Source: a virus
Taxonomy: Duplodnaviria > Heunggongvirae > Uroviricota > Caudoviricetes
Strand: one strand, 5' to 3'
IMG/VR virus record: IMGVR_UViG_3300029998_000021
Length of the DNA: 64,000 nucleotides
Notes under the pieces: generated by a model
What the model saw: the letters and a program-made list of their open reading frames with translations, nothing else
The model's database searches: none
What the model was told of the DNA's origin: nothing
Translations under genes and position numbers: made by a program
Shown here: one piece after another, positions 3,588 to 30,650 of the stretch
Layout: each line of letters starts with the position of its first letter
Position numbering within the stretch: position 1 is the stretch's first letter

Positions 3588-3612
3588 TATTTTTTATTTT
3601 TGTAACTGTATC

Positions 3613-3700
3613 TTACAGTTTTTTTTATTTTTTTGTTCTTTTATGAGTTTATATATAAACAAAAAAATCTCATTTTTTGTCAAAATGAGATTTTTTTATC
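3613..3700. other. two strong hairpins (AACTGTATCTTACAGTT; 12-bp AAATCTCATTTT/AAAATGAGATTT) likely within IS left end
   Basis: Perfect inverted repeats each followed by T-runs, located between the tnpB start and the 30-nt end motif. Confidence 0.4.
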
Positions 3701-3708
3701 GAAATAGA

Positions 3709-3738
3709 AAAATATGACTTTATTTTATTTATATATAC
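3709..3738 (-). repeat. 30-nt motif TATATATAAATAAAATAAAGTCATATTTTT (copy 1, minus orientation)
   Basis: Identical 30-mer also at 21828-21857 and 30437-30466, degenerate copy at 12570-12595; always just upstream of and opposite to a nuclease gene. Confidence 0.7.
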
Positions 3739-3764
3739 TTATACAAGAAAAAACAATAGTATAA

Positions 3765-5018
3765 GTGAAAGTAATTAAATATACATATAAATTTAGATTA
3801 AAACCAACAAATGACCAGAAAATTCTTTTAAATAAGCATTTTGGTTCTGTTAGATGGACTTATAATTATTTTTTAAACCAACGAAAAGAAGAATACCTTA
3901 ATAATAAAAAATCAATAACCTACAATAAACAATCAGAATATCTAACACAATTAAAGAAAAATGAAGAAACCGAATGGCTAAAAGAAATAAACAGTCAAAC
4001 ATTACAATACTCTCTTAAATGTTTAGATACTGCTTATTCAGGGTTTTTTGCTGGAAGATCAAAACTTCCAAAATTTAAATCAAGGAAAAATAGAAATTCA
4101 TTTACTGTACCGCAATTCGTGTCTGTAAATAAAAATAAATTATTTATACCAAAATTTAGAGAAATGGGTATAGAAATAATAATGAATAGAAAAATTAAAG
4201 GAACAATTAAACATTGTTCTATATCAAAAACTTCTACTGGAAAATATTTTGTATCAATTTTAACAGAGCAAGAACATCAACCAACAACAAAATCAAATCA
4301 ATCAGCAGGAATAGATTTAGGAATAAAAGACTTTTTAGTATTATCTAATGGAACGAAAATCAAGAACCATAGATTTTTAAAACACTACGAAAGGACGTTA
4401 GCACTAAATCAAAAACATCTATCAAAGAAGACTAAAGGATCAAATCGTTATGAAAAACAAAGATTAAAAGTTGCTAAAATTCATGAAAAAATAACAAACT
4501 CAAGAATGGATTTAATTCATAAAACAACTAATAATCTAATTCGTAATTTTGATGTTATTTATCTGGAAGATTTAAATATTAAAGGAATGAGCAAAAGATG
4601 TAAGTCAAAACAAGATAAAAATGGTAAATATTTACCCAATAATCAATCAGCAAAATCAGGATTGAATAAATCCATTTTAGATGTTAGTTGGGGTAAATTT
4701 ATTGAGGTTCTAGAATATAAAGCCTCTTGGAATGATAAGCAAGTCATTCATATAAATAGATTTTTTCCATCTTCTAAGGCTTGTTCTAAGTGTGGTTGTA
4801 TTAATAATAATCTAGCACTTAAAGATAGAACTTGGATTTGTCCTAAATGTGGTTCAGTTCATGATAGAGATGTGAATGCAGCAATAAATATCCTTAACGA
4901 AGGATATCGTAAAAATATATCAGATGGAACGTCTGATTACGAGCGTGGAGCAAAAATAAGACCAATTTCGGTTGGCACAAGCAATGAAACGTTTAAAGAG
5001 AAGGAACTTGTTTCCTGA
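3765..5018 (+). CDS. tnpB: TnpB (IS605 OrfB-type RNA-guided nuclease), GTG start
   Basis: RuvC motifs AGIDLGIKDF, IYLEDLNIKGM, RDVNAAINI; Zn finger CSKCGC...CPKCG; N-term KFRLKPTNDQ. Confidence 0.9.
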   Translation: MKVIKYTYKFRLKPTNDQKILLNKHFGSVRWTYNYFLNQRKEEYLNNKKSITYNKQSEYLTQLKKNEETEWLKEINSQTLQYSLKCLDTAYSGFFAGRSKLPKFKSRKNRNSFTVPQFVSVNKNKLFIPKFREMGIEIIMNRKIKGTIKHCSISKTSTGKYFVSILTEQEHQPTTKSNQSAGIDLGIKDFLVLSNGTKIKNHRFLKHYERTLALNQKHLSKKTKGSNRYEKQRLKVAKIHEKITNSRMDLIHKTTNNLIRNFDVIYLEDLNIKGMSKRCKSKQDKNGKYLPNNQSAKSGLNKSILDVSWGKFIEVLEYKASWNDKQVIHINRFFPSSKACSKCGCINNNLALKDRTWICPKCGSVHDRDVNAAINILNEGYRKNISDGTSDYERGAKIRPISVGTSNETFKEKELVS

Positions 5019-5038
5019 AACTGAAATATTAAAATATT

Positions 5039-5254
5039 TTAGTAGTTCATAGGAAATGCATAAAAACCAATTGGTGCCGGAGGCGCATGAAATGAATCTT
5101 CACCAAATCCTTTTTGTTTAGTCAAATGCATTCTACCATATCTAACAAAAGTGTTGTCAATATCTACTTTTTTAATCTTAATTCTATTTCTTCCACCAAA
5201 AATCTCATCTTTATTATCAAGAAAATATTTTTCAAATGACTTTAAATTTTTCAT
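5039..5254 (-). CDS. truncated MKNLKSFEKY family member (lacks KYNL tail), abuts tnpB 3' end
   Basis: 71 aa versus about 110 aa for paralogs; family N-terminus retained. Confidence 0.45.
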   Translation of the reverse strand: MKNLKSFEKYFLDNKDEIFGGRNRIKIKKVDIDNTFVRYGRMHLTKQKGFGEDSFHAPPAPIGFYAFPMNY

Positions 5255-5586
5255 AAATTATATTTATTTGATTGTAATTTTAATTTTAGTTCAGTTGGAG
5301 TCTTAGCAAAAGCCGCAATATTACTTAAATCAGTAGATTTTACACCATCAGAAGGAAATTGATGTTTTATATTTTTTGGTATATTATAATATTGTATTTG
5401 CACACCAATAATTTTATGCTCAAAATCAAAAATAAGACTTATAACTTTACCTATATGAGTTGATAAAAATATAATCATATCTTCATATTCAAGTCCCCAA
5501 CCACTAATATAATTTAATTGTATATAATCTCCAATTTCTGGTATATCGCTCATTGAATATTTTTCAAATGTTTTTAAATTTTTCAT
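5251..5586 (-). CDS. MKNLKTFEKY/KYNL family member
   Basis: N and C termini conserved; ATGA overlap. Confidence 0.6.
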   Translation of the reverse strand: MKNLKTFEKYSMSDIPEIGDYIQLNYISGWGLEYEDMIIFLSTHIGKVISLIFDFEHKIIGVQIQYYNIPKNIKHQFPSDGVKSTDLSNIAAFAKTPTELKLKLQSNKYNL

Positions 5587-5921
5587 AAATTATATTTATT
5601 TGCTGTTACTTTCATTATTACTTCTTCTGGGGTTTTACCAAACCCAATTACTGTATTTGCTTTTCCTATCCATATTAGCCAAGAATTATTTTCGGTATCA
5701 AAATATCTTATACGAATACTATCATCTGGTTTATTTATATATTTAACTAATATAGTATGTTCTTCGTCTTTAATAACTTGCCCAACGTTATTATTAATAA
5801 ATTGTGAAAGTTTAATTTCTTCATCTGTTTTTGATCTGTTTGGTAAATTTAAATTAATTATAACATAATCATCTACTTGTACTGAGTTATTATATTTTTT
5901 AAATGTCTTTAAATTTTTCAT
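5583..5921 (-). CDS. MKNLKTFKKY/KYNL family member
   Basis: as above. Confidence 0.6.
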   Translation of the reverse strand: MKNLKTFKKYNNSVQVDDYVIINLNLPNRSKTDEEIKLSQFINNNVGQVIKDEEHTILVKYINKPDDSIRIRYFDTENNSWLIWIGKANTVIGFGKTPEEVIMKVTANKYNL

Positions 5922-6262
5922 AAATTATATTTATTTATTGCATTTTTTAATAAAAATTCTTTTTTCTCTTGTGGCGTTGCCATTCTAATATTATCGTGTA
6001 ATATATCTATATGATAAGAATTATTATATTCAATAAAATTATTTTCAAGTTTATCTGGAATAGTATTATATTTAAGAGTATAGTAAGCATATTTAACATC
6101 TTCAATTTCGCCAACCGTATTATTTAAAAAACCTTTTAAATCATTTAAATTAAAATTTGCTCCTGTTATAAATCCAACAACTAAATCACCAACATCTGGT
6201 TTTTTAATTAATAATCTATTATCTCTTTTAGAAAATCTTTCAAATGTTTTTATCTTTTTCAT
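5918..6262 (-). CDS. MKKIKTFERF/KYNL family member
   Basis: as above. Confidence 0.6.
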   Translation of the reverse strand: MKKIKTFERFSKRDNRLLIKKPDVGDLVVGFITGANFNLNDLKGFLNNTVGEIEDVKYAYYTLKYNTIPDKLENNFIEYNNSYHIDILHDNIRMATPQEKKEFLLKNAINKYNL

Positions 6263-6531
6263 AAATTATATTTATTTATAGATATCTCCGTATCTGATGT
6301 AAACACTTCTTCATTCCAGGACCCTAGATTTTGTTTTGTATTAGGGTCTAAAATATTTAGATAATTGGCTTGAGAATCTTTATATATTTTATTTATAATA
6401 TATGGTTTTTTGTATTGTGGAATTGGTATATTATCTGTTTTTCTTAAATCTTTTCTAATGCAAATTACAATATCACCTTTTTTATATTTTGATTTTGATT
6501 CAAATAACTTTATATATTTCATAAATTTCAC
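6259..6531 (-). CDS. family member (MKFMKYIKLFES...KYNL)
   Basis: as above. Confidence 0.55.
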   Translation of the reverse strand: MKFMKYIKLFESKSKYKKGDIVICIRKDLRKTDNIPIPQYKKPYIINKIYKDSQANYLNILDPNTKQNLGSWNEEVFTSDTEISINKYNL

Positions 6532-7364
6532 TCCATATTATTTATTTCATTCTGTCTCTTATCTTCTCCCTCTGTCATTATCTTTTCTTTATTAGATTGA
6601 TCACCAAAATTATGATACCAGTAAACTCTTTTTAATACTCCAGCAGAACTTGGCAGAACTCCATCTGGTTTAGGCACACCAAGATAACTCCAATCAATAG
6701 TATTATCATTATCACAAATCTCAAAATCATCACTCATAACATCAAAAACTGGATAATAAGTATTAACTTCTAATGAAAATTTCATTGTTATTATATTATC
6801 AGAAGTCATGTTTATTTCTCTTGGAATTTCTACACCACTATCAGATGGCAATTTAAATTGTGCATCAATTTTTATTCCAAAATAACTAATATAAAAAAAT
6901 CTATAATTAAATAGAACATCCAAAATTTTAGTATAACAAATATCTGCTTCCCATTCATTATCTAATCTAATTTGAATATCATATGCTAATGTAACTGGAA
7001 CCGCCTTTGTCCTACTTACTATAACTTTAAATTCATCATTTATTTTAGTTTCTTTTGCTAAATATGTATTTGGGTTAGCAAATTCATCATCTTTTTGAGA
7101 ACCACCTTTAAATGTGACTACACCTCTTTGCTTTTGATCAGTATTCAATTCCACTCTGTTACCAACAATATCATCAACAAATGCGTCTAACATAAATCTT
7201 TCTTGTCCAGCATATGAAGTGTAAAAAGGAAGTAAAACTCTTATTTTTTTACCATCACTCCAACGATTTATCCATCTCACTTTAGTTCCTAAAACTTTAC
7301 ATAATGCTATTGTCGTCATTCTAACAAAATTATCATCATAATTGTATTCTTCATTTATGTGCAT
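6528..7364 (-). CDS. hypothetical protein (possibly virion structural; late promoter upstream)
   Basis: 278-aa ORF; TATAAATA on coding strand 17 nt upstream. Confidence 0.45.
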   Translation of the reverse strand: MHINEEYNYDDNFVRMTTIALCKVLGTKVRWINRWSDGKKIRVLLPFYTSYAGQERFMLDAFVDDIVGNRVELNTDQKQRGVVTFKGGSQKDDEFANPNTYLAKETKINDEFKVIVSRTKAVPVTLAYDIQIRLDNEWEADICYTKILDVLFNYRFFYISYFGIKIDAQFKLPSDSGVEIPREINMTSDNIITMKFSLEVNTYYPVFDVMSDDFEICDNDNTIDWSYLGVPKPDGVLPSSAGVLKRVYWYHNFGDQSNKEKIMTEGEDKRQNEINNME

Positions 7365-7381
7365 TTTAAACTTTTTTATTT

Positions 7382-7389
7382 TATTTATA
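7382..7389 (-). promoter_or_regulatory. T4-type late promoter box TATAAATA
   Basis: Plus TATTTATA is TATAAATA on the minus strand, 17 nt upstream of ATG 7364. Confidence 0.35.
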
Positions 7390-7414
7390 TATAAAAAATG
7401 GCATCAACAAAAAT

Positions 7415-7744
7415 ATGAAGTATCAGAGGAAATTTGTCATAAAAATTATTAATGCGCCATGGACGCCATGGATCAATAAAAATAAAAATCTTTATATTAA
7501 AGATTTTATTAAAAACTCAATAGGATTTCATTACACAACAACTCATATTTTAGAAAATGCAAAATTTTGGCGGTATAAAAAAACTTGTGAGAATAGTATA
7601 AACTTATTTTTAAAAAATATGGATATCACAAAAATTAAAAATATAGACAATCTTGTTTTTGAAATAATAGAAATAACTGATAATCAAACACTAAGAAATA
7701 TAAAACTTAATATAATTAATAGATTAAATAAAGATGAAAATTAA
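7415..7744 (+). CDS. hypothetical protein
   Basis: 109-aa ORF. Confidence 0.4.
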   Translation: MKYQRKFVIKIINAPWTPWINKNKNLYIKDFIKNSIGFHYTTTHILENAKFWRYKKTCENSINLFLKNMDITKIKNIDNLVFEIIEITDNQTLRNIKLNIINRLNKDEN

Positions 7745-7979
7745 AATAGGTGATAAAGTTAAAATAAATAAAAAAAAGGTTAATTTGGATTCATATAACA
7801 ATACATCATCTTGGTATTCAGATGAAATTTATACTATAAAAGATTTTGATAAAAAATGCAATATTACAACATTGGATAGAAATCTACATCATAGAAATGA
7901 TTGTAGAATCCATATACTATATTTAAAATCGCTAAAGAAAGAAAGAAAGAAAAAACTTTTAAAATTAAATTCACTATAA
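7734..7979 (+). CDS. hypothetical protein
   Basis: 81-aa ORF overlapping previous by 11 nt. Confidence 0.35.
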   Translation: MKIKIGDKVKINKKKVNLDSYNNTSSWYSDEIYTIKDFDKKCNITTLDRNLHHRNDCRIHILYLKSLKKERKKKLLKLNSL

Positions 7980-8029
7980 TATTCGGATAGAACCAAAATT
8001 AATCAATTCATAGTTATTAATTTTAAAAG

Positions 8030-8060
8030 AACACCATCTCCGGATGGTGTTTTTGTTTTT
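8030..8060 (+). terminator. rho-independent terminator
   Basis: AACACCATC-TCCG-GATGGTGTT stem followed by TTTGTTTTT. Confidence 0.6.
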
Positions 8061-8082
8061 AAAATATTTATATATAATAATT

Positions 8083-8373
8083 ATGAAATATATTAGAAAA
8101 TTTGAAAATATAGAATTTCCAACAGATGGAGATTATATTTTTTTTATAAATAAGAACAACGGCAATGGTTCATTACTTCGTTTTTTAGAAAATAATATTG
8201 GAATAATAAAATATACATATCCAAGTTATTATGAAATTAAATATAAAAATATACCTTCAAATATTGAAGCATATTTTTATAATGAGAAAATATCTTTATC
8301 AAAAGAAACAGTAAGATTTGCTACACCTGATGAAATAGAGCATTATGAAATATTAAATAAATACAATATATAA
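8083..8373 (+). CDS. family member (MKYIRKFENI...LNKYNI); ORF track start 8044 probably too early
   Basis: Internal Met gives canonical family N-terminus. Confidence 0.55.
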   Translation: MKYIRKFENIEFPTDGDYIFFINKNNGNGSLLRFLENNIGIIKYTYPSYYEIKYKNIPSNIEAYFYNEKISLSKETVRFATPDEIEHYEILNKYNI

Positions 8374-8374
8374 C

Positions 8375-8734
8375 ATGAAGCATCTTCAAGGATTTTACGA
8401 TAAAACAAATGAATCTATTTTTGATATATTTAAAAAATATAAAGATGGTGACTATGTTATAATAAAAGAAGATGGCTTTTTTTATTCAAAAACACCAGAA
8501 AAAACTGTCAAATTATCAAACACTACAATAAGAATAACTTCATCAACAATAACAAAAGATATTGAATTTAGTGATCTTAAATATGGAGAATTCAAAGAAA
8601 AACAATTTATTACAACAGATAGTAATAATGAGCGAAATTTAATATCAATAGAAAACATAAAAAGAAAAGCAACACAAAAAGAGATAGAACAATACGAATT
8701 AGAAATACAATATATAAATAAATACAATATATAA
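8375..8734 (+). CDS. family-related small protein (MKHLQGFYD...INKYNI)
   Basis: KYNI C-terminus; variant N-terminus. Confidence 0.5.
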   Translation: MKHLQGFYDKTNESIFDIFKKYKDGDYVIIKEDGFFYSKTPEKTVKLSNTTIRITSSTITKDIEFSDLKYGEFKEKQFITTDSNNERNLISIENIKRKATQKEIEQYELEIQYINKYNI

Positions 8735-8749
8735 AAATAATCAATAAAC

Positions 8750-9019
8750 ATGAAACATCTTCAAGGATTTTACGATCAAACAAATGAGCTAAATGAAGCT
8801 AAAATTACCACAAAAGAAATTAAATCAAATTTCACAAACGATACTTTAATTCAAGTGGTAGATGCAGATGATAAAAATATTGGACAAGCCAAAATTAAAA
8901 AAGGATTAAAAACTTCTTACAACGTATCGTATAAATTAAAAAATTATAAAGTTAATAAAGATGATTTATCATTAAATACTCACGGACAAATTCAAACTGA
9001 ATTAAAAAATTTAAAATGA
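8750..9019 (+). CDS. paralog of previous (same N-terminus MKHLQGFYD, no KYNI tail)
   Basis: Duplicated N-terminal segment. Confidence 0.45.
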   Translation: MKHLQGFYDQTNELNEAKITTKEIKSNFTNDTLIQVVDADDKNIGQAKIKKGLKTSYNVSYKLKNYKVNKDDLSLNTHGQIQTELKNLK

Positions 9020-9258
9020 AAAATATGAAAAACCTACACAAATTTGAAAATTATGATAATGTAGATATATCTTGGAATACTGAAGGAATTAAAGGACTAA
9101 TTAAATATTACGATGAAGAATTAAAAGAAGAACAAGAGTCAAGTCATTTTCCAGAAAGTGAGGAAGAACAGATAAATAGAAATGAAGAATGTCAAACTTT
9201 ATTAAAAGGTATGATTGATAAAAATTCTTGGTATTACAAAAAATTTAATAAAATTTAA
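9016..9258 (+). CDS. hypothetical acidic small protein (MKNMKNLHKFENYDN)
   Basis: 80-aa ORF coupled to upstream gene. Confidence 0.4.
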   Translation: MKNMKNLHKFENYDNVDISWNTEGIKGLIKYYDEELKEEQESSHFPESEEEQINRNEECQTLLKGMIDKNSWYYKKFNKI

Positions 9259-9311
9259 TAGAAGAAAAGGCGTTTCTAATTTAAACCTTTATCGTTTTTT
9301 ATCATATATTA

Positions 9312-9353
9312 TTCTAAATTAAATAAAATATTATTCTAAATTAAATAAAATAT
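9312..9353 (+). repeat. tandem direct repeat ATTCTAAATTAAATAAAATA x2
   Basis: Seen in sequence immediately upstream of the gp44 ATG. Confidence 0.5.
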
Positions 9354-19660: not shown

Positions 19661-19675
19661 ATTTTTATTTTATTT

Positions 19676-19951: not shown

Positions 19952-20015
19952 AATTTTATTTTTATTTTATCTTATATATAAATTTTTTAAACTCATATTT
20001 AAAATAAAATTACAT

Positions 20016-20050
20016 AAAAAAAAGTTGATATTTACAATATCAACTTTTTT
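20016..20050. terminator. terminator hairpin AAGTTGATA-TTTACAA-TATCAACTT with A/T runs
   Basis: Directly 3' of the tmRNA gene on the minus strand. Confidence 0.55.
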
Positions 20051-20057
20051 AATAGCG

Positions 20058-20424
20058 TGGAACCGGCGGGATTCAAACCCGCGTCCAAAATAGTCTTTCG
20101 GCATCTTCTACAAGTTTAGTTTCATTTTTCTAAATAAAACAAAAATAAATAATTTTTATTTAGGTAATTATTAAATCCTATAACATTTTTATATCAGTAT
20201 AAAATAGTTTACTAAAAAAACTAGTCTGGTTTTCTTGTTTAGGCTACAGAAACTTCATTCTCAACGACAGATCCAACAACTGAAATTGTTGATTTAGAAG
20301 AAACTACGTGCGTATGTACATTGCCATTTATTGTTTGTATCCATTAATTTATTAATCGCTTATTAGATTATGCGATACTTGCTGATAACCTCATTTCACA
20401 ATCCTGTCAAATTCAGTCGATCCC
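20058..20424 (-). ncRNA. ssrA: tmRNA (ssrA), about 367 nt, CCA not encoded
   Basis: 5' GGGAUCGACUGAAUUUGACAGGAUUGUGAAAUGAGG parallels E. coli GGGGCUGAUUCUGGAUUCGACGGGAUUUGCGAAACCC; 3' GGACGCGGGUUUGAAUCCCGCCGGUUCCA versus E. coli GGACGCGGGUUCAACUCCCGCCAGCUCCA; 7-bp acceptor pairing GGGAUCG/CGGUUCC. Confidence 0.75.
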
Positions 20425-20557
20425 ATATTTTCAATGAACATTAATATTACAAAAATTATATTTGATCTGATATACTGCAACCATTAATCTCAAAATGTCC
20501 ATCAGATATTTTTCTTTATATTGAGGTCAGTAATATTAATAAAGTATATAGTAATGT

Positions 20558-21805: not shown

Positions 21806-21827
21806 TACTATTTTTAGTTTATAACAC

Positions 21828-21857
21828 TATATATAAATAAAATAAAGTCATATTTTT
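21828..21857 (+). repeat. 30-nt motif copy 2
   Basis: Identical to 3709-3738 (reverse complement) and 30437-30466; 23 nt upstream of tnpB-like ATG. Confidence 0.7.
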
Positions 21858-21994
21858 ATATTTCCATAAAAATATCCAAAAAATTAATTTATTGAATTTT
21901 ATTCATTTTTAACTTTATTCAAAATTTCTTTTAATTTTATACATCTATAATTTCTTGAATTTTATTCATTTATAACTATTTCCTATTTTAGATT

Positions 21995-22450
21995 TCATTT
22001 CTTTAAATATAATATAGAATTTTCATAATCTATTATAGCATTTCTAGATAATAAATAATCAGAGCCAATTAATCCAGCAACAACAAAATTATCTTTTTTA
22101 AAATATGGATTTAATTCTTCTAAATCAATACCAAGAAATGGTATATGTAATTCTTTTATATTATAGTCAAATATTATATAAATATTTTGCAAGCCACCAA
22201 TACCAACATATCTTTCTATTGGTTGATTAATATAAGAAAAATTATATTTTTTATATTTATTTATATCTAAAAATGATTTACTAGAACCACTATCAATCAA
22301 AAATAAAGTTGATTTATCATTTAGAGTCAATTTAATAAATAATATATTATTTTGCCTTATTATATTATATTTATCATATTGTGCATAAAAGTTTTTAGAA
22401 CTTACGCAACCAAATAACAACAATACTAATATAATAATAATTTTTTTCAT
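21995..22450 (-). CDS. lipoprotein with retropepsin-like aspartic protease domain
   Basis: Lipobox LLFGC; LFLIDSGSSKSFLD (D-S-G-S active-site-like), GIGG flap-like motif. Confidence 0.45.
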   Translation of the reverse strand: MKKIIIILVLLLFGCVSSKNFYAQYDKYNIIRQNNILFIKLTLNDKSTLFLIDSGSSKSFLDINKYKKYNFSYINQPIERYVGIGGLQNIYIIFDYNIKELHIPFLGIDLEELNPYFKKDNFVVAGLIGSDYLLSRNAIIDYENSILYLKK

Positions 22451-22452
22451 TT

Positions 22453-22824
22453 TTATTCATCAACTCTTGACATTATATCTTTTTCTATTTCTTCTTGTGT
22501 AATATTAGGATATTTCTCCTTTATTGCCAAATATAATCTATCTTTATCATTTTTTAAAGCTTCTATTTTATCATAATATGGTCTAACTATATCTTGTATA
22601 ATTTTAATTTCTTTTTCCAGAACAATCAACTTATTATTAAGCTCTAATGTTTTTCTAATTTCATTTAAATCTGATTTAACTGTTGTCTCCATATCATCTT
22701 TGATTTTTTCAAATATTTTCTTTCTCTCAAAAATAAATGGTTCCTGTTTTAAGATTTCTTTCAAATTTTGAATATAAATCTTTCTTATTCTTACTCCTTC
22801 ATTAATATATTGTTCGGCTATCAT
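22453..22824 (-). CDS. hypothetical coiled-coil protein
   Basis: 123-aa ORF. Confidence 0.4.
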   Translation of the reverse strand: MIAEQYINEGVRIRKIYIQNLKEILKQEPFIFERKKIFEKIKDDMETTVKSDLNEIRKTLELNNKLIVLEKEIKIIQDIVRPYYDKIEALKNDKDRLYLAIKEKYPNITQEEIEKDIMSRVDE

Positions 22825-23189
22825 CCTTCGATTTCTTTTTTTCTTTTTTCAATCATATATTGAATATATTCTTCTTCACCCATTTTATTAATTTTAATAT
22901 CCTCTTCTGATAATGGCATCACATTATGATCACTTTCATATTTAGCCTTATACCAATCATCCATATTAAAATCAATATCTTCAATCTTCTCATTTAAACC
23001 ATATTCATCATATTTAGAAACTAAATATCCAACATCGTAAGGAACGCCAGAAGGTCCTGAAAAATAATCAATTAAAAAGCTAGAAATATCAGAGTAATCA
23101 TCAGATTCTATTGCTCTATCAATATAATAATCAGACAAATATCCAGCCATCTTTGTTATCTTCATTTCATATTCTCTATATTTTCCCAT
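22821..23189 (-). CDS. hypothetical acidic protein
   Basis: 122-aa ORF. Confidence 0.4.
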   Translation of the reverse strand: MGKYREYEMKITKMAGYLSDYYIDRAIESDDYSDISSFLIDYFSGPSGVPYDVGYLVSKYDEYGLNEKIEDIDFNMDDWYKAKYESDHNVMPLSEEDIKINKMGEEEYIQYMIEKRKKEIEG

Positions 23190-23998
23190 TATTCTTCTTC
23201 TTTTTTTTCTTCTTCAACACCCAATTCTTTATTTATTATTCTTTTAAGTTGATTATAAATTTCTTCCTTGAGTTTAGAAGGGTCTTTTAATATTTTATTT
23301 GATATTAAATTTGCATAATATTCAACAGCATCAGCTTCAACATTTTCTTGAACCATTCCAATAAAAGTTGGATTTGGAATATTCTCTTCTATTTCAACAT
23401 TTAATTTTACTGGATAATTATTCTTAAACATCTTAAACATCATTTGAATTGGATCTACTACTGTAGCTGGCTTAGATTTAGGCTTAGAAGATTGTGCCTG
23501 AATTTCAAAAGGATCTTGTGAATTTTCTATTTCACCATTTAAAAGTTTGTCTTCTTCAGCGTCCCAATCTTTTTGTTCTGATGGCATTTGAGCACCTGGC
23601 ATACTTTGTCTCCATTGGGCTATCATAGCATCTTTTTCTTCTCTCGATAAATTAATTTGACCTTCCATTTGAGGTTGTTTTATAACTCCACCTGGTGGTA
23701 ATGAAGTATCAGAAAGAACAACTGGAGCTTGAACAAATTTTACACTAGCACCACCTTGATTTTCATTTACTTTACTACTATCTATATTTCTAATTTGATT
23801 GGCGATATTTAACAATGGATCAGTTGAATAATTAGTATTAAAAAATGTATTTGGATCAACTTCGGCTTGGATATCATAATTTCTTTTAAAAACATCTTTC
23901 TTAATACTAATACTATTATTTAACACATAAAAATCTGCATTTTCATTCATTATTGAAACCTGCTCACCAGTTGCTTTATTTACATAATTATTTGACAT
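23189..23998 (-). CDS. hypothetical protein
   Basis: 269-aa ORF. Confidence 0.45.
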   Translation of the reverse strand: MSNNYVNKATGEQVSIMNENADFYVLNNSISIKKDVFKRNYDIQAEVDPNTFFNTNYSTDPLLNIANQIRNIDSSKVNENQGGASVKFVQAPVVLSDTSLPPGGVIKQPQMEGQINLSREEKDAMIAQWRQSMPGAQMPSEQKDWDAEEDKLLNGEIENSQDPFEIQAQSSKPKSKPATVVDPIQMMFKMFKNNYPVKLNVEIEENIPNPTFIGMVQENVEADAVEYYANLISNKILKDPSKLKEEIYNQLKRIINKELGVEEEKKEEE

Positions 23999-24079
23999 GA
24001 CAAAATTATTATTTTTATGATATATATAATAACGTATAGGTTCTATTTAAAAAGTTTTTTAAAATTTAATATATATAAT

Positions 24080-24415
24080 ATGATAACAAAATTTGAAATA
24101 TTTGAAAGTTCTATATCAGCAAACGGGGTTGGTGGTAAATCTTATCCAGATCATAATACTCCAAAATTTAAAATTGGAGATGAAGTTATGGTTATTTATG
24201 ATTTAAAACAATTTGGATATCCATATGGTATAGTAAAAGGTGATTTAGTTAATATTATAGATTTTTGGATAAATGGCAATGGAAATATTAGTTATACAAT
24301 AGATAGTCCTAAATTACGTGAAATAAAAAAAGGTATAGATATTAGAAATGACGATTTTGATGAATTTAATTTTGAATATGAATGGAAAATAAATGCAAAT
24401 AAATATAATATATGA
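24080..24415 (+). CDS. family variant (MITKFEIFES...NANKYNI); ORF track start 24017 probably too early
   Basis: Identical N-terminus MITKFEIFE in next gene. Confidence 0.5.
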   Translation: MITKFEIFESSISANGVGGKSYPDHNTPKFKIGDEVMVIYDLKQFGYPYGIVKGDLVNIIDFWINGNGNISYTIDSPKLREIKKGIDIRNDDFDEFNFEYEWKINANKYNI

Positions 24416-24843
24416 TAACAAAATTTGAAATATTTGAAAATATTATTTTAGACACATCTGGTTCTATGAATGATTATAAACATACAAAAAATAATAAATA
24501 TAATGAATATTCTTGCAGAGATGAATATTATATTATAATAGATTCTGATATAGTAAATACTAGCACATGGTTAAAAATTGAAAAATCAGAAAAAATTAAA
24601 AATTTTATAGAAAATAATATAGGGCAAATTCACAAACATCTTAGTTGTGGTCTAACAATTTACGATATATACATAAAATATAAAAATATACCAAAAGATA
24701 TTAAATTTTATTTTGAAAATTTCAAAATTGACCTAACCAGCAATCAACGTGAAAATATAAAATATGTTGAATTTGTCTCAAAATATAAAGAAGCTTGCGA
24801 AAAATATTTAATGAATAAAATAAGTACAAAATATAATTTATAA
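24412..24843 (+). CDS. family variant (MITKFEIFEN...ISTKYNL)
   Basis: as above. Confidence 0.55.
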   Translation: MITKFEIFENIILDTSGSMNDYKHTKNNKYNEYSCRDEYYIIIDSDIVNTSTWLKIEKSEKIKNFIENNIGQIHKHLSCGLTIYDIYIKYKNIPKDIKFYFENFKIDLTSNQRENIKYVEFVSKYKEACEKYLMNKISTKYNL

Positions 24844-24860
24844 AATTTATATATAAACAA

Positions 24861-26027
24861 ATGGCAGAGTTAAGGTATACAGAGTTAAAATTCGAAGGAA
24901 AAATTTACAATGAGCAATGGAAAATTGATGAAATTCTAATTAAGAACAAATTCAATTGGATGGTTAATGCTGAAATAAAAAATGCTAGACTTGAAATTTT
25001 TGAAAACACATTAGTCTGGAATGCTGGCATTTGGTACAATGGTTCTTGGTATTTTGGTGTTTGGAGAGATGGTGAATGGAGATATGGAACATGGCAAAAT
25101 GGTGTATGGTATAATGGGGTTTGGAGAGATGGTACATTTAAATCAGGTATTATATATAAAGGTAAATTTTTTAAAGGTAAAATAGAAAGTGGAGAAATTC
25201 GTGGTGGTCAATTTATTGACGTACAAATAGATCCTAAAGTTGTCGAATATACTGATGACGAATATCAAGTAAAAAAAGAAGAAGAAAAAAAACAAACACA
25301 AGTAGCAACTGCAACTGCGGAACCTACTACTGTACCACAAACAAATGTAGTTAAAGTTCATAGTACACAACCACCATCTCAACAACCTGTTGCACAACCA
25401 AAAATACAACAAGAAAAAAAAGAATATAAAAATATGAAAAAAATAAAAACATTTGAATCTTTTTCAAATAATTCAGAATTTGTAGAATTTAAAGTTGGTG
25501 ATATTGTTAGGTTAAAAAAGTTCACTATTACCGGAAGGGACATACCCCGCATAAAAGACGAATGCTTTAGGATAGATAAGATAAATTCAAATTATGATGA
25601 TCATGGTCAAAAAAGTGAAGATAGATTAGATGGAAAATATCATTTAATTCTAATCGGAAATGAAAATGATTCTGTAACTACTTGGAAAAATAGTACAGAT
25701 ATAGAATTAGCACCAGAAATAATACAACAAATGAATAAAAAAGAATATGAAAATAAAAATATGAAAAAAATAAAAACATTCGGAAAATTTGTAGAATCCG
25801 TAGGTGAATATGAAGATAGTTTTGTTAAAGTTAATAGAGATGAAACTGAATTAGAAACATCTGATAGACCAAATTTAGGTAAACTAAAACAAAAACCTGG
25901 CAAAATAGTCATTGAAACACCTAGTAAAACAGATGCTTATAATGCAAAAATGAGATTGGGAGGAGATATTATTCAAGAACCTGGATTTTCTGACAAACAA
26001 ATCCACACAGTTAAAGACACAAAATAA
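24861..26027 (+). CDS. three-module fusion: WxxGxW (MORN-like) repeat domain, T/P/Q linker, then two family-type modules starting at in-frame MKKIKTFE (25434, 25761)
   Basis: Repeats GIWYNGSWYFGVWRDGEWRYGTWQNGVWYNGVWRDG; internal KKEYENKN-MKKIKTF junction resembles KKYNL*-MK with the stop lost. Confidence 0.5.
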   Translation: MAELRYTELKFEGKIYNEQWKIDEILIKNKFNWMVNAEIKNARLEIFENTLVWNAGIWYNGSWYFGVWRDGEWRYGTWQNGVWYNGVWRDGTFKSGIIYKGKFFKGKIESGEIRGGQFIDVQIDPKVVEYTDDEYQVKKEEEKKQTQVATATAEPTTVPQTNVVKVHSTQPPSQQPVAQPKIQQEKKEYKNMKKIKTFESFSNNSEFVEFKVGDIVRLKKFTITGRDIPRIKDECFRIDKINSNYDDHGQKSEDRLDGKYHLILIGNENDSVTTWKNSTDIELAPEIIQQMNKKEYENKNMKKIKTFGKFVESVGEYEDSFVKVNRDETELETSDRPNLGKLKQKPGKIVIETPSKTDAYNAKMRLGGDIIQEPGFSDKQIHTVKDTK

Positions 26028-26028
26028 G

Positions 26029-26580
26029 ATGAAATCTTATATTAATTTTATTAAAGAATCAGCTAATAGTCATGATGATTTTGTTAAAATTTTACAAGAC
26101 ATCATAATAAAAGACGACAAAACTATTAATGGATTTGAGTTTAATGAAGATTCCAGAAGTGGAGCATTTGAATGGTATAATGGGGATTATATTATATATT
26201 CCACACCATATTGGGACGGAAATATGGATTTACCAATTGATATAACTAATAAAAATGGAGATGAAATAGATGAACAATTTTTTGACTTGATAGAATTAAA
26301 AAACGTCAATGATGTTAATTCAATTATTAAATTTTATTATGAAAAAATAGATGAAATAACATATCAATTAAGCAAAAGAACCGAATTAAAAAAAGATTTA
26401 GAATTAATATTAAAAAGTGTCAATTCAATAAATATTGAAGGTTATTTTACTATAGGTAGACACAATAAAGTTTGGTCAAAAATATTAGATCCTCTTCTTG
26501 ATGATGATATTATTGATATATTAAATATAATAAATAAAAAATACTCAGATATTATATTAGCAAATAAATATAATATATAA
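26029..26580 (+). CDS. family-related protein (...LANKYNI)
   Basis: KYNI C-terminus. Confidence 0.45.
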   Translation: MKSYINFIKESANSHDDFVKILQDIIIKDDKTINGFEFNEDSRSGAFEWYNGDYIIYSTPYWDGNMDLPIDITNKNGDEIDEQFFDLIELKNVNDVNSIIKFYYEKIDEITYQLSKRTELKKDLELILKSVNSINIEGYFTIGRHNKVWSKILDPLLDDDIIDILNIINKKYSDIILANKYNI

Positions 26581-26596
26581 AAAGTAAACCCATAAT

Positions 26597-26604
26597 TATA
26601 AATA
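26597..26604 (+). promoter_or_regulatory. TATAAATA late-promoter box
   Basis: 25 nt upstream of ATG 26629. Confidence 0.3.
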
Positions 26605-26628
26605 TATAATATAAAATTATTTATAATT

Positions 26629-26946
26629 ATGGATTTTGTTTATCTATTAGAAAACACAAATGAATCAAACACAGTATATAAAATTGGTTTCACCAAAAAA
26701 ACAATACGAAGTAGAATACGTCCATTACAAACTGGAAATGCTTACGAAATAACAGAATTATATAAATTTCCAACAAAATATAACCGCCGTCTTGAGACAT
26801 CCCTTCATCGTCACTATAAAATAGATAGAATGAATGGAGAATGGTTCAAATTATCAGAAACTGATGTTGAAAATTTTCTTGCAATTTGTGAAAGATTAGA
26901 AAAAGGATTTGATGCTTTAAAAGATAATCCATTTTTTAAATATTAA
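26629..26946 (+). CDS. T5orf172/GIY-YIG-like domain protein
   Basis: YVYLLEN...YKIGFTKKTIRSRIRPLQTGNAYE...LHRHY...GEWFKL pattern. Confidence 0.55.
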   Translation: MDFVYLLENTNESNTVYKIGFTKKTIRSRIRPLQTGNAYEITELYKFPTKYNRRLETSLHRHYKIDRMNGEWFKLSETDVENFLAICERLEKGFDALKDNPFFKY

Positions 26947-26963
26947 ATAGAAATTGTATTTTT

Positions 26964-27335
26964 TTATTTGGAACAACTATCAATATAATTCTGCAAATCT
27001 TTCAATATTTCTTTATCTATTTCTTTTGCCATTTCTTCACTAAGTTTACAGGTAAAAAGTTCTCCAATATCAGCAGTTGTTGAATTATCAATTATTTTTT
27101 GAATTATTTCATATATTACATCCTGATTAATTTTAAAGAGTTTTATTTTTCTCATTATTTTAATATTTATTGAATAATATATTTTATTAGTGCCAATATA
27201 TTCTACATTAAAATATCTTTCAATAATTTTTTTGTCATTAGCATCTTTAAATTTATATTCAAAAATACTATTAGATACAAAATATTTCAAATCTTCCGCC
27301 ATTTGCCTTGTCCAAATTGATTTCAATACTCTCAC
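26964..27335 (-). CDS. hypothetical protein
   Basis: 123-aa ORF, overlaps dut by 4 nt. Confidence 0.4.
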   Translation of the reverse strand: MRVLKSIWTRQMAEDLKYFVSNSIFEYKFKDANDKKIIERYFNVEYIGTNKIYYSINIKIMRKIKLFKINQDVIYEIIQKIIDNSTTADIGELFTCKLSEEMAKEIDKEILKDLQNYIDSCSK

Positions 27336-27769
27336 TTAACTCCTGTATGTCCAAAACCACCCAATCTATCAGTTTTTTCCAAATCTTCAACTATATCCCA
27401 TTCACACGTCTCATATTTATTAATTACCATCTGAGCAATTCTATCACCATTATTTATCATAAATGTTTTAAGAGACAAATTAACTAGCAACACACAAACT
27501 TCCAAACGATAATCCGAATCAATTGTACCTGGAGTATTTATAACAGTAACACCATTTTTAATGGCAAGTCCACTTCTTGGTCTTACTTGCACTTCATATC
27601 CTTCTGGCAATTGAATATAAATCCCAGTGTGTATCATTATTCTTTCCATAGGATCTAATTCTATTTCTTTACCATTCTCAATATATGCTCTTATATCCAT
27701 TCCCGCTGAGCCTGAAGTAGCATATTCCGGCAATTCATTATTTGATTTATTTACAATTTTAACTTTCAT
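27332..27769 (-). CDS. dut: dUTP diphosphatase (trimeric dUTPase)
   Basis: All five motifs: YATSGSAGMDIRA, RPRSGLA, GTIDSDYRLEVCV, GDRIAQMV, RLGGFGHTG. Confidence 0.92.
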   Translation of the reverse strand: MKVKIVNKSNNELPEYATSGSAGMDIRAYIENGKEIELDPMERIMIHTGIYIQLPEGYEVQVRPRSGLAIKNGVTVINTPGTIDSDYRLEVCVLLVNLSLKTFMINNGDRIAQMVINKYETCEWDIVEDLEKTDRLGGFGHTGVK

Positions 27770-27815
27770 ATTTTTCTTTTATTTTTTTTAATTTTATTTC
27801 TATAATCTCCAACTT

Positions 27816-28253
27816 TCATAAAACCGAAAGTTTTTTTAATTTTAATTGTCTCTCTTCTTTAAGTGTGTAAAAATATTCAGATATAAAGTCTTCTGTCACT
27901 GGCACACCATTTACACTATAATTATTCCAACTATAATTAGATGAATATGTCGTAGATGTTGTTGATGTACAAGCAGTTGTTGTTGATGTTGTGTTTGAAT
28001 TAAATGTAGATCCTGAATATGGTGGATTATATATTATCGTAGATCCTGAAAGTCCTGAAACTGATGGTGATAAACATGATGACCAATATGTGCCTGGCAC
28101 ACCATATGTCTTAATAGTCTCTTTTATAACTTTATACTTTTGTCCTTTTACAAACATAACATTCTTAAACGGATTAATTAAATTAATAAAAGATTTATTA
28201 CTAGTATAGTAATTCTTTTTACACAACAAAAAATATTCTGTTTTCATAACCAA
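27816..28253 (-). CDS. hypothetical Ser/Thr-rich protein
   Basis: 145 aa, low-complexity S/T/N core. Confidence 0.35.
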   Translation of the reverse strand: MVMKTEYFLLCKKNYYTSNKSFINLINPFKNVMFVKGQKYKVIKETIKTYGVPGTYWSSCLSPSVSGLSGSTIIYNPPYSGSTFNSNTTSTTTACTSTTSTTYSSNYSWNNYSVNGVPVTEDFISEYFYTLKEERQLKLKKLSVL

Positions 28254-29329
28254 AAATCGTCTATATTATCTTTTTTAACTTCTACTTCCTCAATCTCTTT
28301 CTTAATTTCCACAGAAACTTGTTTTTTAATTTTTTCTTTTTTTATTGGCGCGATAAATGCGCCATCATTCAAATCTTCAATTTCATCTACTAATTTTTCA
28401 GAAATAGATGTATAACTACTAATATGATTTGGATCATAATTTAAAATCAACAATTCAGTACCCTTTGTGTCTTTATTATCAGAAAAAGATGCAGATGATC
28501 TAAAAAAATCTCTTTCCAACCAAGTATATTTATCTTTAGGTAGATGCTGAGACAATGCTGGAAAATCATAATATGATAAAGCCCATCTAGATTTCGTTGT
28601 TTTTAGTAATTCTAATAATCTCATATGAGTTTGTTGATTAAAACTATCCTTAACACCATACCAAGATGCTCTCATTCCAGTATCGTTACCATCTTTATCG
28701 TTACTGAAATAAGGAGGATCTAAATAAAAAAATGTATCTTCCGAATCATACATTTTTATCAATTCTTCAAAATCTAAACTATGAACATTCGTAATTTTAG
28801 ATAATTTAACTTGATATTCTTTCTTTTTTAATTTATTAATAAGAGCATATAATTTAATTTTATTATTTCCTCCCATTCCACTATAACCACCGCTTCTTGG
28901 AAACACCCCATTAAAAGTTGATGTTAATAAAAATGCATATTTTACACCAGCATCAAAATCAGGAATATTAGTTGGTGGATTATCTAAAAAATTTGTAGCA
29001 CTTTTATCGTGTTTATAAGAATAAAATATATCTTTATGAAATTGTTTATATTCCTCACCAGTTTTATCAGTTTTTAAAAATCCATTATTTATTTCATTTT
29101 CAATTTTAGATAAAAATATTTTATGTTCTTTTAAACAGGCAAATAAATTAGCCATATGTTTATTATAATCATTGTATATTATATTTTTAACATTAGAATA
29201 GTCTAATCCTATTGTTGTATATACCCACATTGCGCCAGAAAATGGTTCCGCAAAAGTTTTTATATTTTTTGGTATATAATCGTATATCCAATTAGACATT
29301 TTGCTCTTCGCGCCAAAGTATGAAATCAT
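28244..29329 (-). CDS. dam: DNA N6-adenine methyltransferase (Dam-like) with Lys/Glu-rich C-terminal extension
   Basis: Motif I FAEPFSGAMWV, motif IV FYLDPPYF. Confidence 0.8.
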   Translation of the reverse strand: MISYFGAKSKMSNWIYDYIPKNIKTFAEPFSGAMWVYTTIGLDYSNVKNIIYNDYNKHMANLFACLKEHKIFLSKIENEINNGFLKTDKTGEEYKQFHKDIFYSYKHDKSATNFLDNPPTNIPDFDAGVKYAFLLTSTFNGVFPRSGGYSGMGGNNKIKLYALINKLKKKEYQVKLSKITNVHSLDFEELIKMYDSEDTFFYLDPPYFSNDKDGNDTGMRASWYGVKDSFNQQTHMRLLELLKTTKSRWALSYYDFPALSQHLPKDKYTWLERDFFRSSASFSDNKDTKGTELLILNYDPNHISSYTSISEKLVDEIEDLNDGAFIAPIKKEKIKKQVSVEIKKEIEEVEVKKDNIDDFWL

Positions 29330-29351
29330 ATTAATTATATTTTTTATTTAT

Positions 29352-30284
29352 TTAGTTATATTTTTTTCCTTTGTTTAGATTTCCTTCATAAAAAATATCA
29401 TCAACATATCTATTAGTTGACCACATTGGATTTAGATTAGATAAAGCATTAACTACTGATGGTAAATCAATAGAATCAAAAGTTCCAACACTACGGATAT
29501 GATCAACATACCACTCACCATAATTTTCCCAATTCATACCTTCTATCCAATTTTTTTCTATATGTTCTTTTAATTCCATAGCAGAATAACCAAGTGAATT
29601 TAATGTTGTGTCAAATTTTTCTTGTTTTAATTGTACAATTGTTCTTCTTAATAATGACCGCCATAATACAATATGTTTATTTTTAGAATTATACTCGTTA
29701 CACCATTTCCTTTTCGATTCTTTACCTTTTTCAGACTGGCTATATTCTTTTTTCTTTTGCTTGAAATATTCCTTATGATTATTATAATATATCTTAAAAT
29801 TTTCACTTACTTCTTCTATATGGCTTTCACGTCTATTTTTATTTTTTAGTTGATAATATTCTTTATTATCGTTATAATTTTGTAATATTTTATCATGTTT
29901 TTCTTCTCTATATTTTTTTGTTTTCTCTTTATATCTCTCTTTATTCAAAATATAATATTTTTTCTGATTTTCTTTAATCAATTCCTTATTATTTTCTCTA
30001 TAAATTTTCTGTTTTTCTTTAATCTGTTCTTTATTTTCAATATTATATTCTTTTACATGGTTTTTTATATATTCTTTATTTTCTTCATAATAAATTCTAC
30101 ACTTATCTGAAACTTGCTTCTTATTTTTTAAATAATTATTTCTTTTATTTTCAGAATAGCATATTTTGCAAATATTTCTTCTATTATTATTTGAATGTAA
30201 CAAAAATTCTTCAACATCTTTCTCTTCCCCACACTTTTTACATATTTTTCTCATAACTGTAATATTCTTTTTTCTCAATTGCAT
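29352..30284 (-). CDS. HNH-type endonuclease with N-terminal CxxC zinc finger and K/E/N/Y-rich repeats
   Basis: CKKCG...CKIC; C-term GYSAMELKEHIE...GMNWENYGEWYVDHIRSV...NLNPMW (His-Me finger); paralog of 57823..58524. Confidence 0.55.
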   Translation of the reverse strand: MQLRKKNITVMRKICKKCGEEKDVEEFLLHSNNNRRNICKICYSENKRNNYLKNKKQVSDKCRIYYEENKEYIKNHVKEYNIENKEQIKEKQKIYRENNKELIKENQKKYYILNKERYKEKTKKYREEKHDKILQNYNDNKEYYQLKNKNRRESHIEEVSENFKIYYNNHKEYFKQKKKEYSQSEKGKESKRKWCNEYNSKNKHIVLWRSLLRRTIVQLKQEKFDTTLNSLGYSAMELKEHIEKNWIEGMNWENYGEWYVDHIRSVGTFDSIDLPSVVNALSNLNPMWSTNRYVDDIFYEGNLNKGKKYN

Positions 30285-30417
30285 TATTTTTAATTAAATC
30301 ATCATAAATTAAATATTCAATATATTTTGAACAATTTTCAATATTACTTTTTAAGTATTCTCTAATTTCAATGCTTAAAGCAACTGAAATCTTTTCTTTT
30401 GTTTTTATCTTTTTCAT
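30238..30417 (-). CDS. small ORF (59 aa), possible ribbon-helix-helix protein
   Basis: MKKIKTKEKISVALSIEIREYLKSN...; not in ORF track (<60 aa); preceded by 30-nt motif. Confidence 0.3.
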   Translation of the reverse strand: MKKIKTKEKISVALSIEIREYLKSNIENCSKYIEYLIYDDLIKNNAIEKKEYYSYEKNM

Positions 30418-30436
30418 AAAATAGGTATTTTATAGG

Positions 30437-30466
30437 TATATATAAATAAAATAAAGTCATATTTTT
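30437..30466 (+). repeat. 30-nt motif copy 3 (contains TATAAATA at 30441-30448)
   Basis: Identical 30-mer; lies between divergent small RHH-like ORFs. Confidence 0.7.
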
Positions 30467-30512
30467 CCATTTTTAAATATTTTTTTGACTATAATTAAAA
30501 AAACATTTTTAT

Positions 30513-30650
30513 ATGATAAAACCTAAAAAAAAATCTATTGGAATAACAATAGATAAAGAACTTAATGAAAAACTTGAAAAATATTTAAAAGAAAAAAAAT
30601 TAAGTAAATCTGAGTATATAGAATTTCTAATAAAAAAAGATAAAGAGTAA
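30513..30650 (+). CDS. ribbon-helix-helix (CopG/Arc-like) small DNA-binding protein, 45 aa
   Basis: MIKPKKKSIGITIDKELNEKLEKYLKEKKLSKSEYIEFLIKKDKE: beta-strand then two helices; not in ORF track. Confidence 0.45.
   Translation: MIKPKKKSIGITIDKELNEKLEKYLKEKKLSKSEYIEFLIKKDKE

Follow-up and report, generated by a model that had tools for sequence, protein, structure and literature searches.

Some IS605 elements encode Arc, a ribbon-helix-helix (RHH) protein that binds and represses the native tnpB promoter, and related Arc proteins adjoin homing endonuclease genes (Moon, Zedaveinyte, Wiegand, Sternberg; bioRxiv 2026, 10.64898/2026.09.24.754181). This repression is the closest known system to the element described here, a sequence module of ~38 bp that precedes selfish nuclease genes in the Caudoviricetes record IMGVR_UViG_3300029998_000021, which we analyzed as a stretch of 64,000 nucleotides, referred to below as the window. 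In both cases a small gene, of the RHH type in IS605 elements and an RHH candidate in the phage, lies beside tnpB or a homing endonuclease gene, and the intergenic promoter, a predicted one in the window, is often placed between divergent genes. The phage module differs in its breadth: one invariant ~38-bp sequence recurs across many phage genomes, where it is common to TnpB of at least five clades, to an IS607-type element and to endonucleases of at least five unrelated families; many of its carriers have no RHH gene of their own. It also differs in its setting, a huge phage instead of a bacterial chromosome, and in a predicted promoter that is not sigma-70-like; RHH binding to it is proposed by analogy. 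On balance, we consider it probable that the sequence is a portable promoter module of nuclease cassettes, which probably also serves as an operator for Arc-like RHH proteins.

Other described systems share some of these features. The free-standing homing endonuclease genes of T4 (seg, mob, I-TevI) have their own middle or late promoters, and I-TevI is autorepressed. A phage-type promoter of their own and low expression, in one case through an operator overlapping the promoter, are points that they would have in common with the module. However, each T4 gene carries its own instance of a general promoter class and there is no invariant shared sequence, and in T4 the endonuclease represses its own gene, with no separate RHH protein involved. 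The PeSLs of T4-type phages are near-identical promoter-terminator units that mediate modular exchange (PMC2839356, PMC4122927). Like the module, they are short regulatory cassettes scattered over a large phage genome, where they flank variable, non-essential genes. In contrast to it, they combine a sigma-70-like promoter with a terminator stem-loop and are found beside ORFan genes of every sort, whereas the module usually has no stem-loop (5 of 22 contexts do), is of another promoter type and, in its exact version, is restricted to nucleases. Finally, both TnpB genes of the window belong to IS200/IS605 elements of the IS1341 type (tnpB only), and they have relatives with both subterminal hairpins and an omega-RNA-like 3' region ending in TAGTTCAT. 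The difference is that the motif is not an end sequence, and that the window copies and other exact-motif copies have no left-end hairpin.

Motif copies in the window and in public sequence data

The exact 30-mer TATATATAAATAAAATAAAGTCATATTTTT occurs three times in the window, with 0 mismatches, at 3708-3737 (-), 21828-21857 (+) and 30437-30466 (+), and is absent from all 100 dinucleotide-preserving shuffles of the window. An earlier note on this DNA had reported three identical 30-mers and a degenerate fourth copy. We recover all four; the positions given for the second and third copies are right, and that of the first was one base off. Read in gene orientation the motif is AAAAATATGACTTTATTTTATTTATATATA, which contains only one G and one C and can form no stem or hairpin. 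The degenerate fourth copy consists of TATGACTT, 7 nt and TTTATATATAC, spaced as in the exact copies, and each of its 5 mismatches in the 25-nt core falls in the spacer. A loose pattern, TGACTT...TATA[TA]A, has just four matches in the window, namely the three exact copies and the degenerate one. A weak fifth copy lies outside the 3600-30470 range that the earlier note covered. The TTTATATATAC site at 1668-1678, before a small open reading frame (ORF) and a TnsA-like nuclease, was considered as a copy and rejected, because it has no A-tract and no GAC part and sits at an operon junction.

The three exact copies and the degenerate one each stand 5' of a nuclease locus, as had been proposed. The motif ends 27 nt before the GTG of tnpB1 (3765), 22 nt before the ATG of tnpB2 (21805), 19 nt before the ATG of a 59-residue ORF (30417) and 45 nt before the ATG of a DUF7487 endonuclease fragment (12522). 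Pfam and PHROGs support the TnpB, endonuclease and homing-endonuclease calls. Both TnpB proteins match OrfB_IS605, Cas12f1-like_TNB and HTH_OrfB_IS605 in Pfam and are 26% identical to each other, in agreement with the statement that they are clearly diverged. The orientation of the motif relative to its gene is consistent; that it was called opposite only reflects the strand on which the motif had been written.

The limits of the module were taken from a conservation profile over 22 non-redundant contexts aligned on the 25-mer TATGACTTTATTTTATTTATATATA. The conserved span runs from -12 to +25 relative to this 25-mer, and conservation outside it is at background level. Within the upstream 12 nt, AAAAT is found in 20-21 of the 22 contexts, G in 16 and AAAA in 19-22; 3' of the 25-mer a single base is conserved, a C in 14 contexts and mostly a G in the remainder. 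The module can thus be written as aAAAAT(a/g)G(a/c)AAAA-TATGACTTTATTTTATTTATATATA-(C/G), with the 30-mer as its core. We read its A5T, TGAC and ATTTT parts as roughly symmetric about TGAC.

The exact 25-mer was then used to scan viral contigs, metagenome contigs and 185,579 prokaryotic genomes. It is present in 26 viral-contig and 68 metagenome-contig stretches, and 57 non-redundant contexts are left once near-identical ones are removed. A selfish-nuclease cassette follows the motif in 56 of the 57, and in all 56, which are phage contexts, the motif faces the gene. The start codon lies 4-51 nt 3' of the motif, with the exception of one decayed copy, where the distance is 124 nt. A TnpB gene alone follows in 27 contexts (at least four clades; three copies with non-ATG starts), and an RHH-family ORF of 48-62 residues followed directly by an ORF of 245-457 residues in 26 (25 endonucleases and one TnpB). 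In two contexts the gene encodes a Cys-rich protein of 336 residues, and in one an IS607-type serine recombinase gene precedes tnpB. Second in the RHH-led cassettes are ORFs of the NUMOD/GIY-YIG, DUF7487, DUF723/treble-clef and HNH groups, some ORFs having no family match, and the single TnpB in this position represents a fifth TnpB clade. The spacer is 1 nt longer in the copy of locus L004 (related loci carry L numbers).

None of the 57 non-redundant exact contexts places the motif at a non-nuclease phage gene, an arrangement that the earlier note had named as contradicting its proposal. The prokaryotic genomes contain one match, within an unrelated gene of a metagenome-assembled genome of the Eubacteriaceae, which we take as a chance match. 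Since this is the only one, the exact motif is not host sequence. The association between motif and nuclease genes is genuine, and it extends far beyond what the window alone shows.

Two sets of carriers deserve separate mention. In L126 (Ga0172381_10017233), at 5946-6650, the exact motif lies 4 nt before the IS607-type serine-recombinase tnpA, which tnpB follows; this is the sole carrier found with a transposase gene of its own. In L090, L104 and L147, a TnpB of the MKLVERHII clade stands behind the exact motif with no in-frame ATG, GTG or TTG near the expected start, which may reflect unusual start codons or decay.

Cassette boundaries, TnpB ends and candidate RHH genes

At the tnpB1 locus the module is part of the insert. 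The 431-residue core gene that adjoins tnpB1 has 45 related loci; at most of these, homology to the window stops at 3693-3699, which directly follows a conserved hairpin and is 2-8 nt short of the module. Past this point every inspected related locus differs in content, and the motif is present at none of them. Since the motif is missing from the inspected sites that have no tnpB1, it is a component of the inserted cassette; the earlier note had left room for an empty-site comparison that would exclude it from the element, and the comparison instead places it inside. The ORF at 5039-5254 was examined as a possible paralogue truncated by the tnpB1 insertion, and only 18 N-terminal residues align.

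The tnpB2 locus is arranged differently. Here backbone homology stops 109 nt from the module, so the module edge is not always the insertion boundary. No empty tnpB2 site was found in the related phage L195; instead, a TnpB of another clade, with a degenerate promoter, lies there between the same neighbor gene and the transfer-messenger RNA (tmRNA) gene. With a different TnpB clade at this position, the stretch beside the tmRNA gene may act as a hot spot for insertions. We also considered whether the tmRNA call could be an omega RNA and rejected this, as the Rfam match covers the full length (63.5 bits) and the tmRNA is real. Its predicted tag peptide, GNVHTHVVSSKSTISVVGSVVENEVSVA, is unusual.

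To locate the ends of the TnpB elements, we compared homologues from viral contigs (43-82% amino acid identity for TnpB1, 70-83% for TnpB2); the TnpB2 homologues are found in contexts that are not syntenic with the window. A hairpin followed by (G)TAGTTCAT closes the 3' side of the element in both families, and beyond it the sequences diverge; in a set of 15 relatives, every 3' end is at (G)TAGTTCAT. For tnpB1, nucleotide-level conservation among relatives covers the final ~130 nt of the ORF and continues, with internal stems, to TAGTTCAT at 5050 (region 4890-5070, +). The conserved 3' region up to 5050 is likely the omega-RNA scaffold, in which case 5051-5070 would be the guide. No guide-like match was found between the motif and the sequences flanking the TnpB right ends.

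The left end is also recognizable in many relatives, as a hairpin with the loop TCTTTAG and compensatory changes in its stem, followed by ATGAATTT (for example CACAGAAG-TCTTTAG-CTTCTGTG + ATGAATTT). In intact relatives this hairpin lies 87-134 nt before the start codon and 50-70 nt 5' of the motif. The motif is therefore distinct from the left end and is inside the insertion-sequence (IS) element, between the hairpin and tnpB, which is the position expected of a promoter. Relatives with the left-end hairpin have 5-13 mismatches to the motif, and the six copies with 0-1 mismatches (window tnpB1, window tnpB2, L008, L014, L017 and L018) are without it. Mismatch counts 5' of the TnpB1 and TnpB2 homologues are bimodal: 0-1 in six, at least 5 in nineteen and 2-4 in none. 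The exact-motif TnpB copies, with the left-end hairpin lost, look like fixed or homing-type cassettes.

The proteins themselves differ in their catalytic motifs. The whole TnpB2 family (including L006-L013, L054 and L064) has IV(V/I)GDL in place of the LEDL of tnpB1, with Gly at the position of the RuvC-II glutamate, and it lacks the zinc-finger cysteines; even so, the hairpins of both the left and the right end are still intact in relatives. These proteins could be dead as nucleases or could have a rearranged active site. For tnpB1, inspection by eye shows a leader hairpin whose stem is preserved in the TnpB1 relatives (L014-L028) through compensatory changes (TTATACC/GGTATAA, TTATGTTA/TAACATAA). 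By analogy with IS200, this hairpin may control translation.

The small ORFs that lead nuclease cassettes form one family with the pattern K-x-S/T-x-S/T-L...N-K-S-K-Y-I-E-Y-L-I, and 26 of the 56 cassettes open with an ORF of 48-62 residues from this RHH candidate family. Pfam RHH_3 and RHH_1 match two members only, and marginally, namely RHH-A of the window and a member in L008 (E = 4e-4 to 7e-5). An AlphaFold2 model of RHH-B, the 59-residue protein of the window, shows an extended N-terminus and two helices with a mean confidence score (pLDDT) of 66, which is compatible with an RHH monomer and not proof of one. Foldseek returned no matches for this pLDDT-66 model, and a PDB profile search gave nothing significant.

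At ~8 of 12 inspected RHH-led cassettes there is a second, divergent RHH gene that starts 45-115 nt beyond the motif, and these divergent genes carry their own, non-conserved -10-like elements. In the window this is RHH-A, which starts 47 nt beyond the 30-mer and 51 nt from the 25-nt core; on the other side, RHH-B overlaps the ORF of the 310-residue endonuclease by 47 nt. The unit [RHH-A <- motif -> RHH-B] is homologous across different cargos: HNH (window, L050), DUF7487 (L004) and TnpB (L056), with 61-67% identity in RHH-B among the window, L056 and L004. Intact homologues of the DUF7487 protein that is split in the window have 354-377 residues and stand behind the motif and an RHH gene in L004 and L008. 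Separately, we note at 57823-58524 (-) a paralogue of the C-terminal part of the 310-residue endonuclease, which has no motif copy.

Proposed promoter and operator roles and competing explanations

With a weight matrix derived from both kinds of copy, exact and degenerate, 12 window sites score at least 14 bits, versus 0.2 in shuffles. These sites form a more general class that includes non-nuclease genes, namely the conserved 431-residue gene, a possible tRNA operon and others. Related loci totaling 808 kb contain 60 such sites; an ORF starts 5-40 nt downstream of 48 of them, compared with 19% for random positions. The architecture consists of an A-tract, YGAY, a T-rich spacer and TTATATATA, with a gene start shortly downstream. 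Its general version reads AAAAAAA(T/C)GA(C/T)-T7-..TTAATATATAA, and the nuclease version is set apart by ATATGAC, the spacer TTTATTTTATTT and a terminal C or G. In the window, TATATATA is enriched 5' of same-strand gene starts (24 of 50). By sequence comparison, the module is an invariant subtype of this general promoter-like architecture of the phage. A composite of terminator and promoter was considered and rejected, as stable structure in the 70 nt upstream (z < -2) is found in just 5 of the 22 contexts.

Further sites of the general class lie at 39612-39642, 47751-47781, 51240-51270 and 55703-55733, all on the (-) strand. The one at 47781 is ~400 nt upstream of a tRNA; no ORF follows the one at 39642, which may serve a non-coding RNA.

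Taken together, the comparative data support well the view that the motif most likely acts as a promoter, and a role of the module as an operator for Arc-like RHH proteins is plausible by analogy. We infer both promoter activity and RHH binding from sequence. As proposed, the ~38-bp module would be carried along by the selfish nuclease cassettes of an AT-rich huge-phage clade, facing the nuclease gene, such that a free-standing homing endonuclease or TnpB gene that bears it would be expressed at any landing site. RHH proteins would probably bind the module as their operator and damp nuclease expression, as Arc does in IS605 elements, and TnpB-only cassettes with the same module would be controlled in trans. 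A dedicated promoter or operator for nuclease genes was the second reading offered in the earlier note, and it gains comparative support from the 56 of 57 exact copies that precede nuclease cassettes, about half of them RHH-led.

Several observations weigh against a dedicated promoter-operator. The census counts exact matches, and the rate of near-exact variants before other genes is beyond its reach. The window contains nuclease-like genes with no motif copy, namely a TnsA-like gene at 873-1397 (-), a T5orf172/MUG113 gene at 26629-26946 (+) and a DUF723/DUF4379 gene at 53542-54450 (-), so the module is not a marker of every nuclease gene. A fit to the sigma-70 consensus is absent, no such site being called at copies 1 and 3, and the Bacteroidetes element TAnnTTTG is neither enriched upstream of gene starts nor matched by the module. 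In the module ATGACT and TATATA are only 12 nt apart, versus 16-18 nt for TTGACA and TATAAT in sigma-70 promoters. For the operator function, the RHH assignment of the small proteins rests on a weak profile, and the beta-strand residues of these proteins vary while the motif is invariant.

The identity of the copies could instead be kept mainly by recombination, in the manner of PeSLs, with the module as a short block of exchange or gene conversion that holds an ordinary promoter and has no dedicated repressor. Exchange would explain why the same RHH-A/motif/RHH-B unit is combined with different nuclease cargos, why mismatch counts are bimodal, and why it is the exact copies that have lost the left-end hairpin, as would be seen if their upstream part came from an exchange; the different TnpB clades at the tmRNA-side site of two phages and the PeSL precedent (PMC2839356, PMC4122927) point the same way. 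However, 38 bp is short for homologous recombination, and only 5 of 22 contexts include the stem-loop half of a PeSL. The module is identical despite 70-83% identity of the TnpB proteins and across unrelated gene families, so selection is needed too, and exchange leaves the restriction of the exact version to nucleases unexplained. We consider recombination rather unlikely as the main cause, and think that recombination at the module probably contributes to its identity.

The remaining explanations concern what else the motif could be. The first reading of the earlier note, a shared IS200/IS605 left end recognized by TnpA in trans, fits the facts that both TnpB families are of one IS type with end sequences in common, that the motif lies 5' of tnpB within the element, and that, in line with the missing tnpA of the note, no Y1 transposase family is matched by 96 ORFs of the window. 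This reading is hardly credible given that the real hairpin, with its compensatory changes, lies further 5' and is missing in the six copies with 0-1 mismatches, and that the motif, with its single G and single C, cannot fold into one. The motif is also not confined to IS ends: it precedes HNH, GIY-YIG, DUF7487 and DUF723 genes and the IS607 serine-recombinase gene, and among the 57 exact copies 26 precede an RHH gene and 2 a Cys-rich 336-residue gene. A nuclease target or insertion site of the recipient genome (a homing site, or a target-adjacent motif with its target) would agree with the tnpB1 locus, where the module edge is within ~5 nt of the end of backbone homology. It is very unlikely, as the related loci without tnpB1 are motif-free at that position, the right-end flanks, where guides are expected, do not resemble the motif, and homology at the tnpB2 locus ends 109 nt away; moreover, one target would have to serve ten or more unrelated nuclease families. 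The earlier note had further pointed to a T4 late-promoter box, TATAAATA, on the opposite strand and reading away from the nuclease gene, and the neighboring genes are indeed often divergent. This octamer is no more frequent 5' of same-strand starts in the window (13 of 54) than control octamers, the divergent neighbors carry -10-like elements of their own and begin at a variable distance of 42-121 nt, with no fixed gene position beyond the motif, and at copy 1 a transcript would run into the hairpin while the divergent gene has its own conserved promoter-like site. A T4-type late promoter firing away from the nuclease gene is extremely unlikely.

Homing endonucleases and TnpB are usually seen as independent selfish genes, each separately regulated. 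In this phage clade, one invariant sequence, apparently a control element, is common to unrelated nuclease families and is often accompanied by a small RHH gene. Were the promoter-operator reading true, it would extend Arc/IS605 repression to phages and to classical homing endonucleases, supply a simple sequence tag with which huge-phage metagenomes could be searched for new mobile nuclease cassettes, even unannotated ones, and give a testable model of the tolerance of a 0.5-Mb phage for dozens of DNA-cutting parasites. The comparison also defines a non-sigma-70 promoter-like architecture for phages of unstudied transcription. A further, tentative possibility, which we regard as unlikely at present, is that the cassettes form a nuclease regulon, in which one invariant promoter-operator and paired Arc-like RHH repressors would govern about a dozen unrelated families of selfish nucleases, from RNA-guided TnpB and IS607 elements to HNH, GIY-YIG, DUF7487 and DUF723 endonucleases, and silence or release them jointly, for example during co-infection. 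Such a regulon could be a coordinated arsenal, or a truce between the giant phage and its mobile elements, with the TnpB cassettes that have no left end living as homing endonuclease genes.

Source phage and features of the window

The window has a GC content of ~24% and carries 10-12 tRNA genes and a full-length tmRNA. Its tail sheath protein of 1233 residues is 52% identical to that of LR756501, a 735-kb uncultured phage. LR756501 belongs to the Mahaphage clade, the largest members of which are predicted to infect Bacteroidetes (PMC7162821). The window is from an AT-rich huge phage related to these 735-kb Mahaphage genomes. A megablast search with 21 kb of the window against GenBank phages gave no match, and contigs of the same phage population are present in several JGI, ENA and Logan metagenomes. 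Source sites comprise the Trout Bog hypolimnion and peat and fen samples (contigs Ga0311360, Ga0302284 and Ga0114951).

Coordinates of the module copies, cassette genes and associated features in the window
Feature	Position	Strand	Context and basis
Module copy 1 (AAATAGAAAAA + TATGACTTTATTTTATTTATATATA + C)	3701..3738	+	faces tnpB1; exact 30-mer and conservation profile
Module copy 2	21827..21864	-	faces tnpB2; exact 30-mer
Module copy 3	30436..30473	-	faces 59-residue RHH gene; exact 30-mer
Degenerate module copy 4	12568..12598	-	upstream of split DUF7487 gene
Weak fifth copy, 7 mismatches	42870..42900	+	13 nt 5' of DUF4379/CapR/DUF2726 nuclease-like gene 42914-43864
General-class site of divergent conserved 431-residue gene	3649..3679	-	overlaps hairpin at ~3656-3692; backbone, not cassette
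tnpB1 leader hairpin CTTATAC...GTATAAG	3738..3765	+	between module and GTG start; seen by eye
tnpB1, 417 residues	3765..5018	+	Pfam; RuvC D/E/D motifs and zinc-finger cysteines present
IS605-type right end, hairpin + TAGTTCAT	5019..5050	+	comparison with 15 relatives
Split, decaying DUF7487 homing endonuclease	11408..12522	-	ORFs 11836-12522 and 11408-11731; Pfam and PHROGs 'homing endonuclease'
tmRNA gene	20055..20424	-	Rfam, full length; directly downstream of tnpB2
tnpB2, 415 residues	20558..21805	-	Pfam
310-residue HNH/EndoVII-like endonuclease	29352..30284	-	PHROGs 'endonuclease' and 'endonuclease VII' families
RHH-B, 59-residue Arc-like RHH candidate	30238..30417	-	first cassette gene; family alignment
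RHH-A, 45-residue divergent RHH gene	30513..30650	+	Pfam RHH_3, E = 4e-4

The tRNA genes form a cluster at 44115-47353 (-), and Rfam adds two weak candidates at 45805-45875 and 45943-46014. Small paralogous genes are arranged in arrays at 216-859, 5039-6531 (-), 8044-8373 and 13731-14670 (+); their N-termini (MKYIKxFE..., MKNLKxFEKY...) and their stop-start junctions (AAATATAATTTATGAAATATAT) are conserved. In-frame tandem repeats are present at 14814-15143, with a 66-nt unit within the ORF 14667-15245, and at 53980-54363, with a 192-nt unit within a DUF723-like ORF. At 34826-34960, between convergent genes, a GC-containing hairpin (AAAAAGCCGATGATTAATCGGCTTTTTT) occurs in two inverted copies that resemble bidirectional terminators.

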